From an uncultured Clostridium sp. (GTDB lineage Bacteria; Bacillota; Clostridia; TANB77; CAG-508), in contig URYN01000008.1 of the NCBI GenBank assembly GCA_900552135.1, forward strand, positions 21,326 through 85,325: a stretch of DNA of 64,000 bases, read 5' to 3'. Positions 3,912 to 9,387 of the stretch are shown one piece after another. Every line of letters begins with the position of its first letter. The stretch's first letter is position 1. The notes beneath the pieces were generated by a model. The model did not search any database. It had not been told where the DNA came from and worked only from the letters and a program-made list of their open reading frames with translations. A program made the position numbers and the translations under genes.

Positions 3912-5930
3912 ATGAAAGAAAAAATGGAGCAAGAAAATATACTTGGAAAAGAAAAAATAGGTAAATTAATATTAAAATTTTCTATTCCTTGCATTGTTTC
4001 AATGTTGGTAAACTCATTATATAACATAGTAGACCAAATATTCATTGGACAAGGAGTAGGACCGCTAGGGAATGGTGCTACAAATGTAGTATTCCCACTA
4101 GTAATGATAGGCTTAGCATTTTCTTTAATGTTTGGAGATGGTGCATCAGCATATTTAAGCTTAAAACTTGGAGAAAAGAAGAAAAAAGAAGCAGAAATAG
4201 GAATTGGTAACGGAATATTATTATCTGCAATTGTATCAATATTTTTCTGTATAATCACATTAATCTTTTTACCACAATTTTTAACAATATTTGGCTGTAC
4301 TGAAAAATTAAGAGAATTCGCAATGATTTATGGTAAGATTATTGCAATTGGTCTTCCATTCTCTATGATTGGAACTACTTTGAATTCAATTATTAGAGCA
4401 GATGGAAATCCTAAATTTGCTATGATGAGCATGGTAGCAGGCGCAATTTTAAATACAATATTAGATCCAATATTCATATTTAAATTCGACATGGGAGTAG
4501 CTGGTGCAGCTATTGCTACTGTAATAAGCCAAGTGCTTACATTTGTATTAAACGTTGCATATATTAAGAAATTTAAATCTATACAATTATCAAAAGAAAG
4601 CTTTAAATTAAAAGCTGGAGTATGCAAGAAAGTTTCAATGCTTGGAATAAGTAGTTTTATTACTCAAATGAGTATTGTATGTGTTATGACTGCCGAAAAT
4701 AATTTACTTGGAAAATATGGTGCAAATAGCGAATACGGAGCCGAAACTCCAATTACGGTTCTTGGAATTGTAATGAAGATAAATCAAATATTAAATAGCA
4801 TAATAATAGGTATTGCTGCAGGAAGTCAACCTATAATTGGATATAATTATGGTGCTAAGAAATATGACAGAGTAAAGAAAACACTGAAGATTGTTCTAAG
4901 TTCAAGTTTAGTAATAAGTACAATAGCATTCATATTGTTCCAAACAATACCAGATAAATTAATCTTAATATTTGGTAATGGTGATGTAAAATACATGGAG
5001 TTTGCATGTTTAGCATTTAGAACATATTTATTACTTTGCATCTGTAATGGTGTTCAAATACCATCAGGAATTTTCTTTCAAGCAATCGGAAAAAGCACAA
5101 AGAGTGCTATATTATCACTTTCAAGACAAATTGTTATATTAATTCCTGCTATGATAATATTGAGTGGAATCTATGGAATAATGGGTGTATTAAGTGCTGG
5201 ACCGGTAGCTGATGGATTAGCGTTTGTATTGGCTGTTATACTTCTAATAAAAGAAACAAGAGGCATGAAGGCTGATGGAGTAGAAACAGAAAAAGCAGAA
5301 AGAAAAGAAATACCAGAAACTGCAGTAGCTAACAACGGAATTGTAATCACAATTGCAAGAGAATATGGTTCTGGCGGAAGATATATTGGAAAATTAGTTG
5401 CAGAAAGATTAGGAATTAAACTATACGATAAAAACATAATAGAAAAAATGTCAGAAGAAACAGGATTGGCAAAAGAATATATAAAAGACAACGAACAAAA
5501 AAGAACTGTTTTCGACAATTTCAATAATGGCTATTATGCTGGTCTGAATAACTCTGACGAACTATTTATACAAGAATCAAACTTAATAAAAGATTTAGCT
5601 GATAGGGAATCTTGTGTGATAGTTGGAAGATGTGCAGACTTCATATTAAAAGACAAAAAGAATGTTTTGAAAATATTTGTAAGTAGTAGTATGGAAAATA
5701 AAGTAAAAAGAGCAACAGAATTTTATCATATAGATAAGAAAAATGCAGAAAAAGAGATTACAAGAATAAATAAACTAAGAGCAAATCACTATGAATACTA
5801 TACAGAAAGAGGCTGGGAGACATCATCAAATTATGATATTTGCGTAAACAGCGATTCTATTGGAATCGACAATGTTGTAGACTTAATATGCAGTATAGTA
5901 GAGAAAAGTAAAGAATTTGCGGTTAAATAA
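3912..5930 (+). CDS. MATE-family efflux transporter fused to C-terminal cytidylate-kinase-like (Cytidylate_kin2) domain
   Basis: ORF 3786-5930; start at ATG 3912 after AAGGGGGAGG; ~12 TM MATE core then TIAREYGSGGRYIGKLVAERLGIKLYDK P-loop-like kinase-like domain in one continuous frame. Confidence 0.75.
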   Translation: MKEKMEQENILGKEKIGKLILKFSIPCIVSMLVNSLYNIVDQIFIGQGVGPLGNGATNVVFPLVMIGLAFSLMFGDGASAYLSLKLGEKKKKEAEIGIGNGILLSAIVSIFFCIITLIFLPQFLTIFGCTEKLREFAMIYGKIIAIGLPFSMIGTTLNSIIRADGNPKFAMMSMVAGAILNTILDPIFIFKFDMGVAGAAIATVISQVLTFVLNVAYIKKFKSIQLSKESFKLKAGVCKKVSMLGISSFITQMSIVCVMTAENNLLGKYGANSEYGAETPITVLGIVMKINQILNSIIIGIAAGSQPIIGYNYGAKKYDRVKKTLKIVLSSSLVISTIAFILFQTIPDKLILIFGNGDVKYMEFACLAFRTYLLLCICNGVQIPSGIFFQAIGKSTKSAILSLSRQIVILIPAMIILSGIYGIMGVLSAGPVADGLAFVLAVILLIKETRGMKADGVETEKAERKEIPETAVANNGIVITIAREYGSGGRYIGKLVAERLGIKLYDKNIIEKMSEETGLAKEYIKDNEQKRTVFDNFNNGYYAGLNNSDELFIQESNLIKDLADRESCVIVGRCADFILKDKKNVLKIFVSSSMENKVKRATEFYHIDKKNAEKEITRINKLRANHYEYYTERGWETSSNYDICVNSDSIGIDNVVDLICSIVEKSKEFAVK

Positions 5931-5975
5931 GGTTTAAAATATAAGCTTTTGGATAACATATTATGGGTGATTAGT

Positions 5976-6974
5976 ATGTTTAAGCCAAAGGCTTTATATT
6001 GTGAAAATAATATTGAAAATTATGTGCTTGGAAGAGAGCTATTAGAAAAATATGCTGATGTTCCAAGAGTGATAATTGACAATCATAATAATATTGAAGA
6101 AATGAGAAAGAAGCAAAATAAAGATTTTGCGGATATGAAACGAAATTTGATAATAGGAGTGAGGAAGACGCATAAGTTTGTTCCAAATCACAAGACATCA
6201 GATTTTCTAGTTCCATATACATCCTCTGGTTGTACAGCAATGTGTATGTACTGTTACCTTGTCTGCAATTACAACAAGTGTGCGTATTTGAGGCTATTTG
6301 TGAATAGAGAAGAGATGCTAGATAAAATTATAAGAACAGCACAAAATGCAGAAAAAGATTTAACCTTTGAAATTGGAAGTAATAGTGATTTAGTTTTAGA
6401 AAATACCATTACAAACAATTTAGTTTGGACGATTGAAAACTTTGCAAATACTTCGAAGGGACATTTAACTTTTCCTACCAAGTTTGATATGGTAGATGAT
6501 ATTCTGACTTTAAAACATAATGGAAAAGTTACTGTTAGAATGAGTGTGAATCCCGAAGAAATTATTAATAAGGTTGAATTTGGTACGTCAAGACTAAAAA
6601 ATAGAGTCCAGGCTATTAATAAATTAGCCGATGCCGACTATCCTATTGGAATTTTGATAGCACCAGTAATTTTAGTAGAAAATTGGAAAGAACTATACTC
6701 GAATTTGATAAAATATCTGTATGAAAATTTGAGCGAAAAGGCTAAGAAACATGCCTTTTTCGAAATTATTTTTATGACATACAGTTTTGTTCATAGAGCA
6801 ATAAATACAGAGGTATTTCCAAATGCCATAGATTTATATAATCCAGAATTGATGAGAGGCCGTGGAAGAGGAAAATATATGTATAAAGACTATATTCGTG
6901 AAGAAGGAGAAAAATTCTTACGAGAAGAAATGCAGAAATATTTTCCGCATAATCAGATTGAATATGTGGTATAA
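5976..6974 (+). CDS. splB: Spore photoproduct lyase (radical SAM)
   Basis: Radical-SAM cysteine cluster SGCTAMCMYCYL; overall SplB-like length; start ATG 5976 after GGTGA. Confidence 0.75.
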   Translation: MFKPKALYCENNIENYVLGRELLEKYADVPRVIIDNHNNIEEMRKKQNKDFADMKRNLIIGVRKTHKFVPNHKTSDFLVPYTSSGCTAMCMYCYLVCNYNKCAYLRLFVNREEMLDKIIRTAQNAEKDLTFEIGSNSDLVLENTITNNLVWTIENFANTSKGHLTFPTKFDMVDDILTLKHNGKVTVRMSVNPEEIINKVEFGTSRLKNRVQAINKLADADYPIGILIAPVILVENWKELYSNLIKYLYENLSEKAKKHAFFEIIFMTYSFVHRAINTEVFPNAIDLYNPELMRGRGRGKYMYKDYIREEGEKFLREEMQKYFPHNQIEYVV

Positions 6975-6995: not shown

Positions 6996-7026
6996 TCGCC
7001 CATTGGGGACGTCCCTTTTTGGGCGA
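6996..7026 (+). repeat. 31-nt GC-rich palindromic hairpin element, copy 3 (TCGCCCATTGGGGACGTCCCTTTTTGGGCGA)
   Basis: Immediately after splB stop; near-identical to copies 1, 2 and 4. Confidence 0.8.
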
Positions 7027-7050
7027 AAAAGAGTACAAAATTTCCTTCGT

Positions 7051-7164
7051 CCACAAATTGTACAAATTGGAAATAGTACAATTTTTCCCCCGGAACTAAA
7101 TTGTACTGTCCTCGAATTGCAAATTGTAAAAAGTCCAAAATCTCCCCCGGAACCAAATTGTACT
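7051..7164 (+). repeat. Cluster of GTACAATTT/AAATTGTAC hairpin and 24-nt direct repeats (TTTCCCCCGGAACTAAATTGTACT at 7084-7107 and TCTCCCCCGGAACCAAATTGTACT at 7141-7164)
   Basis: Palindrome TTGTACAA 7057-7064; hairpin GTACAATTT-N13-AAATTGTAC 7076-7106; related element at 62837-62899. Confidence 0.7.
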
Positions 7165-7172
7165 AAAAGAGC

Positions 7173-7201
7173 TTGACATAAATATATTTAATTTGTATAA
7201 T
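7173..7201 (+). promoter_or_regulatory. Sigma-A consensus promoter (TTGACA-17-TATAAT) driving the SAM riboswitch/metK leader
   Basis: Perfect -35 and -10 hexamers with 17-nt spacer. Confidence 0.55.
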
Positions 7202-7218
7202 AGGTTTTGTAATATATA

Positions 7219-7326
7219 TATTATCAAGAGTGGACGAGAGAATCGGCTTTATGACTCCACAGCAACCTATTGGGTTAGGTGCTAATACCGACAAAGTTAC
7301 GGAAAGTACTTTGAATGATGATTTCT
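7219..7326 (+). ncRNA. SAM-I (S-box) riboswitch aptamer upstream of metK
   Basis: UUAUCAAGAG...GCAACC...GGUGCUAAUACC...GAAUGAUGA blocks match S-box P1/P2/P3 consensus in order; followed by intrinsic terminator; gene context (metK) is the canonical target. Confidence 0.65.
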
Positions 7327-7336
7327 AAGAATCGTT

Positions 7337-7370
7337 AAACTTTGTACCTGCGCAAGTACAAAGTTTTTTA
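7337..7370 (+). terminator. Riboswitch expression-platform intrinsic terminator (AAACTTTGTAC-loop-GTACAAAGTTTTTTT)
   Basis: 11-bp perfect stem plus U-run. Confidence 0.7.
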
Positions 7371-7463
7371 GCTTTTATAGAAATTAAAATTTATTTTAAT
7401 TAAATCAACTTGAGGGGAAAGAGACATTTGATAAGAAATGTATCTAATTGGGTTTTCAGTATA

Positions 7464-7494
7464 TCGCCCCAAAAGGGGCGTCCCCAATGGGCGA
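7464..7494 (-). repeat. 31-nt GC-rich palindromic hairpin element, copy 4, lying between riboswitch terminator and metK RBS
   Basis: TCGCCCCAAAAGGGGCGTCCCCAATGGGCGA; reverse complement matches copy 3 at 28/31. Confidence 0.8.
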
Positions 7495-7511
7495 TTTTGA
7501 AGGAGGAGAAT

Positions 7512-8654
7512 ATGAAAAGATTATTTACATCAGAGAGTGTTACAGGAGGACATCCGGATAAGCTATGTGATTATATATCGGATAGTATTCTGGATAGTTA
7601 TTTGGCAAAAGATAAGAATGCTAGAGTTGCTTGCGAAACCGTTGCGGGCAAAGGAGAAATTTATATAACTGGAGAAATTACATCGACTGCAAATGTTGAT
7701 ATTGAGCAGGTTGTGAGAGACACCATAAAAGAGGTTGGTTATGCAGATAGTGGGTACGATATTGATTACAGAACTTGCAAAATATACATAAGCTTATCTA
7801 AACAATCTCCTGATATTGCACAAGGAGTTGATAAATCGCTTGAAGATAAAGAAGGACAAGATGTTGAATCTGAAGGAGCCGGTGATCAAGGCTTAATGTT
7901 TGGTTATGCTTGTGATGAAACAGAGGAGTTAATGCCTCTTCCAATTTTGCTTGCACACAAGCTTTCTAAGAGATTGACTGAAGTTAGAAAAGAAAAAATA
8001 ATAGATTATTTAAGACCAGATGGTAAGACACAGGTTACAGTTGAATATGATGGAGACAAGCCTGTAAGAGTGGATACTATTGTTGTTTCTACACAACATC
8101 TACCTGATGTTGATATGGATATTTTAAAAAATGACATAATTAAAAAAGTTATAAAACCAACAGTTCCAGCCAATTTATTAGATGAAAACACAAAATATTT
8201 TATTAATCCAACAGGAAGATTTGTAATAGGTGGACCTCTTGGGGACAGTGGTCTTACAGGTAGAAAAATAATAGTTGATACTTATGGCGGAGCTGCAAGA
8301 CATGGTGGAGGAGCTTTTTCAGGAAAAGATCCTACAAAGGTTGACCGTTCGGCTTCTTATATGGCAAGACATATTGCAAAAAATATTGTTGCAAATGGTT
8401 ATGCAAAGAGATGCGAAATACAAATAGCATACAGCATTGGTGTGGCAAAACCAGTATCAATATATGTAAATACTTATGGAACCAATACAATTCCAGAAGA
8501 AGAGATTATAGAAAAAATAAATAATACATTTGATTTAACACCAAGAGGAATAATAAATTATCTTGATTTACAAAGGCCAATTTATAGACAAACAACAAAC
8601 TACGGTCATTTTGGAAAAAAAGACCTACCTTGGGAGAAAATTATAAAATTTTAA
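7512..8654 (+). CDS. metK: S-adenosylmethionine synthetase
   Basis: [21 protein letters not shown]-terminus, [16 protein letters not shown] and other MetK signature blocks; RBS GGAGGAG. Confidence 0.95.
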
Positions 8655-8683
8655 TTGACTGTACCAGTAATAAACAAAAAGAA

Positions 8684-8712
8684 TTGACATAATATTAAAA
8701 AAGATGTATACT
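8684..8712 (+). promoter_or_regulatory. Sigma-A-like promoter TTGACA-17-TATACT for Spo0A_C gene
   Basis: Read directly. Confidence 0.5.
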
Positions 8713-8756
8713 AGAAATATCAGGGATAACCTGAAAACAAAAAAGGAGATGCAAAC

Positions 8757-9218
8757 ATGATTTCAAAAGATGAGAAAAAATTCTTGGAAGAAACTAGGGA
8801 CGATCTTAAGCGGATTCTTAGACGCATCGAATGCACTCTAGCAGTTGATGCCACTAGCAGCTATGACGCAATGGAGGACCAAAGCAAAAGCGAAGAATAT
8901 ATTGTTACGCAATACCTAATGAAACTTGGAGTACCTACATCTGTAACAGGATTTGGGTATATAAAGAGTGGAGTTCTCTATCTCCTCAAAGAAGAGAACA
9001 GGAGAGTACTTGTAACAAGGGAACTCTATCCGAAAATTGCAGAAGAATACAATTCATCAGTATCAAAAGTGGAACGTGCAATTCGCACAGCAATTGGAAA
9101 GGCAGAGAGGAGATGTACTAAAGAGTTACAAATAATCTTGTATGATCGTGAAGAGCTTAGGCTTACTAACATGGAATTCATAACACTGGTTACAGAAAAG
9201 ATTAGATTGGGATTATAA
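8757..9218 (+). CDS. Spo0A C-terminal (DNA-binding) domain-only protein, no receiver domain
   Basis: ELYPKIAEEYNSSVSKVERAIRTAI and NMEFITLVTEKIRL match the Spo0A_C effector domain recognition helix region; 153 aa, too short for a receiver domain. Confidence 0.7.
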   Translation: MISKDEKKFLEETRDDLKRILRRIECTLAVDATSSYDAMEDQSKSEEYIVTQYLMKLGVPTSVTGFGYIKSGVLYLLKEENRRVLVTRELYPKIAEEYNSSVSKVERAIRTAIGKAERRCTKELQIILYDREELRLTNMEFITLVTEKIRLGL

Positions 9219-9227
9219 CAGCATCTC

Positions 9228-9268
9228 GGGGGAAGGACACTCGCAGTTGAGTGTCTTTCCCCATTTTG
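9228..9268 (+). terminator. Intrinsic terminator (GGGGGAAGGACACTC-loop-GAGTGTCTTTCCCC + ATTTTG)
   Basis: 14-bp stem with one G-U pair. Confidence 0.65.
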
Positions 9269-9387
9269 ACGATAATTATTTCAAAATTCAACCATTGAAT
9301 ATAAAACATTTTATACTAGCAGGTCAGTCTTATATAATTTTACGATTTTTATGATACAATGTAAAAAAATTGCAAAAGGAGCAACAC

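Follow-up and report, generated by a model that had tools for sequence, protein, structure and literature searches.

In a 64,000-nucleotide stretch of contig URYN01000008.1 from an uncultured human-gut Clostridium sp. of ∼29% G+C (the whole stretch is referred to as the window), a gene was identified that encodes a stand-alone relative of the sporulation regulator Spo0A. The 153-amino-acid (aa) product comprises the Spo0A effector domain (Spo0A_C) but has no phosphoacceptor receiver domain. The gene (8757–9218, with an ATG start and a TAA stop; + strand, as are all the window features located below) is intact, has its own expression signals and is under selection, and it evolves roughly ten times as fast as the genes around it. 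The residues with which Spo0A reads DNA are kept, while the surface with which Spo0A activates sigma-A is not conserved. On this comparison the protein is somewhat more likely to be a phosphorylation-independent binder of 0A-like sites than anything else, and as such it would more probably act as a competitor or repressor, or through another partner, than as a constitutive activator of the Spo0A type.

The profile PF08769 (Spo0A_C) matched residues 50–149 (8904–9203) over its full length (profile positions 1–104 of 104), with an E-value of 2.7e-22 and a score of 79.2 bits against a cutoff of 25, and the same Pfam scan gave no match to the receiver profile PF00072 (Response_reg) in the 153-aa protein. 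Phosphorylation at the canonical Spo0A site is impossible in this protein because the receiver is absent. The equivalog profile for Spo0A proper, TIGR02875 (spore_0_A, NCBIfam), scored 74.9 bits against a cutoff of 200 and was matched only over positions 128–258 of 262. The missing receiver and the score below this cutoff indicate that the protein is a member of the Spo0A effector-domain family and not Spo0A itself. In the PDB, sequence matches were confined to 1FC3 and 1LQ1 (E ∼1e-12), both effector domains of Spo0A. These results bear out the first-pass annotation, which had proposed a Spo0A effector-domain protein without a receiver from the recognition-helix sequence SKVERAIRTAI and the C-terminal pattern NxEFIxLVxEKIRL; the former occupies residues 103–113 and the latter, NMEFITLVTEKIRL, residues 138–151.

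The AlphaFold2 model of the protein contained seven helices, with a mean predicted local distance difference test score (pLDDT) of 82.5. Foldseek returned significant PDB matches only to chains of 1LQ1 and 1FC3, with target-normalised template modelling (TM) scores of 0.75–0.86 and root mean square deviations (rmsd) of 2.0–3.6 Å, and the model superposed on the Spo0A effector-domain crystal structures at a TM score of 0.84 and an rmsd of ∼2 Å. As modelled, the protein has the all-helical effector fold with a helix-turn-helix that is found in 1FC3 and 1LQ1.

The domain is preceded by an amphipathic helix (residues 4–31, 8766–8849), which was predicted with a pLDDT of 83–86 over residues 1–20 and of 68 over residues 21–30. 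BLASTP alignments with full-length Spo0As start at residue 14, and residues 14–25 (RDDLKRILRRIE) align with residues 109–120 of those proteins (for example RAELKEIFNRIE), where the Response_reg match of full-length Spo0As ends. We take the stretch aligned with RDDLKRILRRIE to be receiver helix alpha-5. Given that RDDLKRILRRIE aligns at the end of the receiver match, the 153-aa protein appears to correspond to a Spo0A lacking approximately the first 100 residues, in which alpha-5, the hinge (aligned with the linker of the present protein) and the effector domain have been kept. The alignment of the N-terminal helix with alpha-5 is a new observation. As a leftover of alpha-5, this conserved helix may serve in self-association or in contacting a partner.

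To compare the effector domain with that of Spo0A, a table was made of the positions conserved in at least 80% of 44 full-length Spo0A representatives. Identical residues were found at 21 of these positions, while eight differed, seven of them conservatively. The kept positions include G58, P60, G65, Y68, T87, Y91, P92, A95, V105, E106, R107, I109, R110, A112, I113, T137, N138, E140, F141 and I142. The recognition helix (residues 102–119, 9060–9113) was located by alignment to 1LQ1 and 1FC3, by its invariance among alleles and from the conservation table; in it S103, E106, R107 and R110 align with S210, E213, R214 and R217 of Bacillus subtilis Spo0A and are at least 90% conserved across the family. 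The B. subtilis numbering was obtained by counting back from the C-terminus of the B. subtilis sequence, and these four residues are the ones implicated in DNA binding by Spo0A in mutational and structural work. A strain variant (P0002, locus L001, 6001–6462), present on four contigs including one of 447 kb, carries R107C at the position aligned with R214. As this is a key position for DNA contact, DNA binding in that strain may be dispensable or altered.

Likeness to Spo0A extends to a homologous domain of the same fold, the same recognition-helix residues and the C-terminal TN-EFI motif, but the effector domain is only 31–43% identical to that of full-length Spo0As. In Spo0A, the unphosphorylated receiver keeps the effector domain inactive, and DNA-binding domains isolated from Spo0A bind genuine 0A-box targets without phosphorylation (PMC3485338). 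Spo0A C-terminal fragments with the receiver removed are also the subject of Grimsley 1994 and Ireton 1993, as those studies are cited in PMC10294663. Such engineered or proteolytic fragments have the same domain content as the present protein and bind 0A boxes without phosphorylation; unlike it, they retain the native sigma-A-activating surface, whereas the natural gene described here has been separate for long enough to diverge to ∼35–40% identity. Binding without phosphorylation by a protein that lacks the receiver would agree with the experiments on isolated domains, and the recognition residues are kept. The function proposed in the first-pass annotation is plausible.

Residues 114–136 (9096–9164) are the counterpart of the sigma-A-activating region of Spo0A (B. 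subtilis ∼227–240) and the loop that follows it, and form a hypervariable patch by both allele rates and the conservation table. Against the Spo0A consensus this segment has W224 replaced by E, G227 by C and P247 by L, and the loop is 4 aa shorter. On these alignments, the conserved sigma-A-activating region is not preserved in the protein.

Rates of evolution were compared in the same genome pairs, using the window and five related loci (L014, L015, L017, L110 and L111), which together provide six alleles. The Spo0A_C gene is an island of divergence of ∼500 bp in genomes whose flanking DNA is 92–95% identical. Protein identity was 62–78% for the Spo0A_C gene (86–88% in the closest allele pairs) and 96–99% for the flanking genes, which encode a spore photoproduct lyase (SPL)-family protein, MetK, an ATP-binding cassette (ABC) ATPase and a zinc (Zn)-ribbon protein. 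Non-synonymous divergence (dN) was 0.13–0.27, or 8.5–15 times that of the adjacent Zn-ribbon gene, against 0.004–0.018 for the flanking genes, and synonymous divergence (dS) was 0.22–0.72, or 2.4–4.4 times that of the Zn-ribbon gene, against 0.05–0.31. The ratio dN/dS (omega) was 0.26–0.62 in 14 of the 15 allele pairs and 1.19 in the closest pair, compared with 0.03–0.19 for the flanking genes. The divergence sets in with the start codon and diminishes over the last helix and the terminator.

Within the gene, variation was greatest in residues 114–136 and in the linker (residues 29–48). The former showed a dN of 0.29–0.97, an omega of up to ∼1–1.5 on small counts and as many as six residue types per site among 13 alleles. 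Constraint was clearer in the N-terminal helix (omega 0.20–0.36) and in the helix-turn-helix core (omega 0.19–0.50), and the VERAIRTAI segment of the recognition helix was invariant in the alleles compared for rates. The notion that the promoter and 5′ untranslated region are more conserved than the coding sequence was rejected: the leader stands at background identity and it is the coding sequence that is abnormally diverged. This locally accelerated evolution is a new observation and is the main distinction of the gene. Diversifying selection on a surface that contacts another protein, import of alleles by recombination and weak constraint are all possible causes, and the contrast with the neighbouring genes hints at conflict or allele exchange at the locus.

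Fast evolution, the absence of the N-terminal ∼100 residues of Spo0A and the R107C variant would also be expected of a decaying fragment of a disrupted spo0A, or of an annotation artefact, and the first-pass annotation had itself named a disrupted spo0A as an outcome that would overturn its reading. We regard this explanation as contradicted by the data and very improbable. TBLASTN with two full-length Spo0As against the whole 64-kb window matched at 8796–9215 only, with neither a receiver-coding remnant nor a second spo0A, and metK ends 102 nt before the start codon. The promoter, Shine-Dalgarno sequence, start codon and terminator are conserved, the last with covariation, and dN/dS lies below 1 in all but the closest allele pair while the recognition helix is invariant. 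Contigs encoding the exact 153-aa protein numbered 262 and came from human-gut metagenomes and metagenome-assembled genomes (MAGs). Diverged alleles (55–99% identity) retain an intact open reading frame (ORF) of 151–154 aa, except for one 142-aa form and several of 89–144 aa; we take the 89–144 aa forms to be cut off at contig ends. The same architecture, moreover, recurs in many unrelated lineages.

In the mechanism that we propose, transcription would start at the gene's own sigma-A promoter, possibly supplemented by read-through from metK, and stop at an intrinsic terminator; the mRNA would have a short stem-loop at its 5′ end and a strong ribosome-binding site. With its helix-turn-helix and recognition-helix residues kept and no receiver to hold it inactive, the protein would occupy 0A-like sites without phosphorylation; this is the most likely mode of binding because the DNA-reading residues are retained and the receiver is missing. 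At these sites it would compete with Spo0A or repress, or it may work through a different, fast-changing partner. A competitor or repressor is likelier than an activator because the sigma-A-activating surface is not conserved and varies from allele to allele.

Several observations weigh against this proposal. No 0A box was found in the promoter of the gene or in the neighbouring promoters, and the six occurrences of TGTCGAA in the window (2.85 expected) are not a significant excess and all lie inside long ORFs. Residues typical of Spo0A have been replaced at H218 (T111, invariant in the allele group), at the K of the HIKGY motif (T64) and at P247 (L136), and because these positions differ the DNA specificity may have shifted. 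The dN of 8.5–15 times that of the neighbouring gene, the omega of ∼1.2 in the closest pair and the R107C variant are compatible with weak constraint. A literature search, finally, found no paper in which any stand-alone Spo0A_C protein was tested experimentally.

The expression signals were located in and around the gene. A sigma-A-type promoter (8684–8712) consists of a −35 element TTGACA (8684–8689), a 17-nt spacer and a −10 element TATACT (8707–8712), and is the top match in the region. The first-pass annotation had called it perfect; the promoter is real and its −35 element is perfect, but the match is 11 of 12 positions, with one mismatch in the −10 element. The window contains six promoter-like sequences that agree at 11 or more of the 12 positions around a 17-nt spacer, where 2.0 would be expected, and none of 100 shuffles reached six. 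This promoter is kept in all alleles, including strains in which the upstream DNA has been replaced. The predicted mRNA start (∼8719) lies directly before a palindrome, TCAGG-N5-CCTGA (8720–8734), which forms a 5-bp stem in the minimum free energy fold (leader z-score −2.45); it is unique in the window, and among alleles its stem is invariant and its loop variable. Judged from its sequence and position, it is a possible 5′ stabiliser or operator. A Shine-Dalgarno sequence AGGAG (8744–8748), read from the sequence and invariant among alleles, stands 8 nt upstream of the ATG.

Downstream, an intrinsic terminator (9229–9269) comprises a G+C-rich 14-bp stem (arms 9229–9242 and 9249–9262), a 6-nt loop and the tail ATTTTGA. 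The hairpin has a predicted folding energy of −27 kcal/mol (z −5.8), and one base pair of the stem changes in a compensatory manner among alleles (ACACTC/GAGTGT, CCACTC/GAGTGG and TCACTC/GAGTGA, that is A-T, C-G and T-A), which supports a working terminator. The strong terminator proposed previously is thereby upheld. The accompanying description of the gene as an independent unit holds in so far as the gene has its own promoter and terminator; it fails in that no terminator closes off metK. Upstream lie a promoter (7173–7201, 12 of 12 positions), an S-adenosylmethionine (SAM) riboswitch (7218–7324) and metK (7512–8654), a segment delimited by promoter, riboswitch and ORF calls (7173–8654). 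Between the metK stop (8654) and the Spo0A_C promoter no terminator-like hairpin was detected (−4.4 kcal/mol, z +0.66). As no terminator separates the two, read-through from the riboswitch-controlled metK, and with it partial co-transcription under SAM control, is possible.

This arrangement bears on the alternative that the protein is a regulator outside the Spo0A regulon, reading another DNA motif and controlling genes unrelated to sporulation, possibly coupled to methionine and SAM status through co-transcription with metK, its host perhaps not forming spores at all. We consider it unlikely. The missing metK terminator is in keeping with it, as are the replacement of RHAI by RTAI in the recognition helix and of the HIKGY motif by SVTGF, both fixed in the allele group. 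The only neighbour linked to sporulation is the SPL-family radical-SAM protein, which scored 237 bits against a curated cutoff of 400; no other sporulation gene was found in ∼84 kb (the window plus 10 kb on each side). A spore photoproduct lyase next door was considered as proof of sporulation and set aside, its score below the cutoff making it a weak hint only. Against a separate regulon, the residues aligned with those implicated in DNA binding by Spo0A (S103, E106, R107 and R110) are all kept, and there is no conserved operon partner that would suggest another pathway. The coupling to metK is also not conserved, because metK and the Spo0A_C gene are separated in related genomes by a Zn-ribbon gene that has a terminator hairpin of its own.

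The distribution of the architecture was investigated with HMMER over 1.84 billion cluster representatives, which gave 4446 matches at E ≤ 1e-3. Among the best 150 of the 4446, 73 were no longer than 200 aa (stand-alone, as read from length), ∼34 had the length of a full Spo0A and 30 exceeded 300 aa. The receiver-less form is not unusual: these 73 short relatives, at least 210 viral contigs with relatives in IMG/VR and the published gut-phage homologs (PMC10294663) show it to be common in gut Firmicutes and phages and already known as a kind. Many of the stand-alone relatives share the layout of an N-terminal helix followed by Spo0A_C in ∼150–165 aa (P0052, P0070, P0071, P0091 and P0095 are examples), but only P0052 (55% identity) and the allele series are close to the present protein, the remainder being at most 45% identical. 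The only locus obtained from a scan of genome contigs was in a distant Acutalibacteraceae MAG (36% identity). Of the 30 relatives above 300 aa, 27 contained two to six matched stretches and so carry tandem Spo0A_C domains, unlike the single domain described here. Five of these (P0051, P0053, P0054, P0059 and P0060) had two to six copies and no other confident domain, for example five copies in 849 aa and six in 959 aa; we have not met a discussion of such proteins.

Relatives on viral sequences were numerous. Among the best 80 in IMG/VR, 63 were stand-alone proteins of at most 200 aa, mostly bare domains of 116–126 aa, and none of the 80 was more than 40% identical to the 153-aa protein; six viral examples were found in BFVD, and two PHROG families, of unknown function, matched. 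Schwartz et al. (2023, mBio) described gut-phage spo0A homologs of which only the effector-domain part is left and which may operate independently of host signals (PMC10294663), and PF08769 is enriched in mobile elements of Firmicutes (PMC6907783). Like those phage proteins, the present one has only the effector domain, occurs in the human gut and would be expected to act on the Spo0A regulon independently of signals. It differs in being encoded on a chromosome, in a housekeeping neighbourhood and at a position kept in related genomes, and its 48-residue N-terminal extension of helix and linker is lacking from most viral copies.

A gene of this kind might have been domesticated or left behind by a phage or mobile element and be engaged in phage-host conflict, for example by manipulating or protecting the decision to sporulate or by excluding phages that carry Spo0A mimics; a surface patch would then diversify fast. 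In addition to the frequency of viral copies, the ∼500-bp island of divergence in which dS too is elevated fits such an origin, and the gene content of the interval from metK to the ABC transporter genes varies between strains, with an rve integrase directly upstream in some of them. We nevertheless hold it to be improbable. Neither phage nor conjugation genes were found in the window or in the 10 kb beyond each end, every related genome has the gene at this position and with this promoter, identity to the best viral relative is only 40% and PADLOC gave no defence-system match for the gene. These comparisons indicate that the gene is chromosomal and vertically inherited, at the same position beside the SPL-family gene and metK in related genomes.

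Apparent carriage in two inspected GenBank phage records, and on plasmids, was rejected. The two GenBank phage records with the widest query coverage (MT835781.1 and MT835718.1, labelled 'UNVERIFIED: Bacteriophage sp.', from human faeces) resemble fragments of bacterial chromosomes and hold full-length spo0A genes of 266 and 255 aa respectively; near spo0A in MT835781 are recN-, glgA- and recA-like genes, as read from ORF translations, and an adjoining peptidase-like gene. The plasmid matches were likewise full-length spo0A genes on chromosome-like records. Three candidates for a Spo0A of the same lineage were rejected: the search from P0019, the closest full-length Spo0A, led to 'Bacilli bacterium' MAGs of a different lineage, and P0021 and P0022 lie on contigs of 37–44% G+C from other samples. 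One locus from another organism (L108, 37% G+C) contains tandem full-length Spo0A paralogues of 254 and 258 aa (7004–7768 and 8001–8777), each with a receiver and Spo0A_C.

Competition with Spo0A, if it occurs, would give the control of dormancy an additional layer that does not depend on phosphorylation. Sporulation governs the persistence and host-to-host passage of many gut Firmicutes, with Spo0A as its switch, and receiver-less Spo0A_C copies have been proposed, for phages, to override host signals. More speculatively, and with a low probability in our estimation, the protein could be a chromosomal, vertically inherited receiver-less paralogue that binds Spo0A sites regardless of phosphorylation, that retains alpha-5 as a handle and whose former sigma-A surface is under diversifying selection, either in a conflict over dormancy with phage Spo0A mimics or with a changing partner. 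Were this the case, a commensal lineage of gut Clostridia would possess a rapidly evolving 'gatekeeper' of the decision to sporulate. Should the gene be no more than a leftover under weak constraint, the finding is an ordinary one. The protein is a convenient test case, being chromosomal in a prevalent human-gut species, with clear expression signals, the DNA-reading residues kept and the activation surface unconserved. Spo0A itself is described as highly conserved, unlike this fast-evolving gene, and in the bacterial contigs inspected it follows a spoIVB-spo0A arrangement, whereas the present gene adjoins metK.

The related genomes share the order SPL-family gene, metK, in some a Zn-ribbon membrane protein gene, and the Spo0A_C gene with the same promoter and leader. 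The Zn-ribbon gene was located at L014 6538–7713, L015 3082–4269, L017 256–1419 and L110 280–1446, and its product is a conserved ∼390-aa membrane protein that has zinc ribbons at the N-terminus and a C-terminal region rich in Y, E and T. The window lacks this gene, and in strain L012 a diverged copy lies further upstream. In six loci with the same or a 98%-identical Spo0A_C protein (L004, L005, L006, L008, L012 and L021) the DNA upstream of ∼8653, the position of the metK stop, has been replaced by an rve integrase, a leucine-rich repeat protein or other genes in place of the SPL-family gene and metK, with the Spo0A_C promoter intact. The replacement looks like a strain-level rearrangement or an insertion breakpoint; a megablast search of the insertion sequence/integrase region of these variant strains against plasmids gave no match. 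In L014 two metK-like genes of 380 and 345 aa adjoin (4222–5364 and 5340–6377), apparently through tandem duplication or as an assembly artefact.

Further genes in the window include tag, rluB, a multidrug and toxic compound extrusion (MATE) transporter, a hydrolase, malQ, ABC transporters, ruvB and polA. Neighbour-gene proteins at 90% identity or above were labelled 'Clostridium sp.' or 'Clostridia bacterium' MAG. The window also holds a large cluster that resembles one for the synthesis of a cell-wall glycopolymer, in which an extended series of glycosyltransferases, an ABC exporter of the TagG/TagH type and large membrane proteins are encoded between 22000 and 45600, all on the + strand. 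A 924-aa protein from this cluster contains ricin-type lectin repeats, a glucosaminidase domain and apparent SH3-type repeats.

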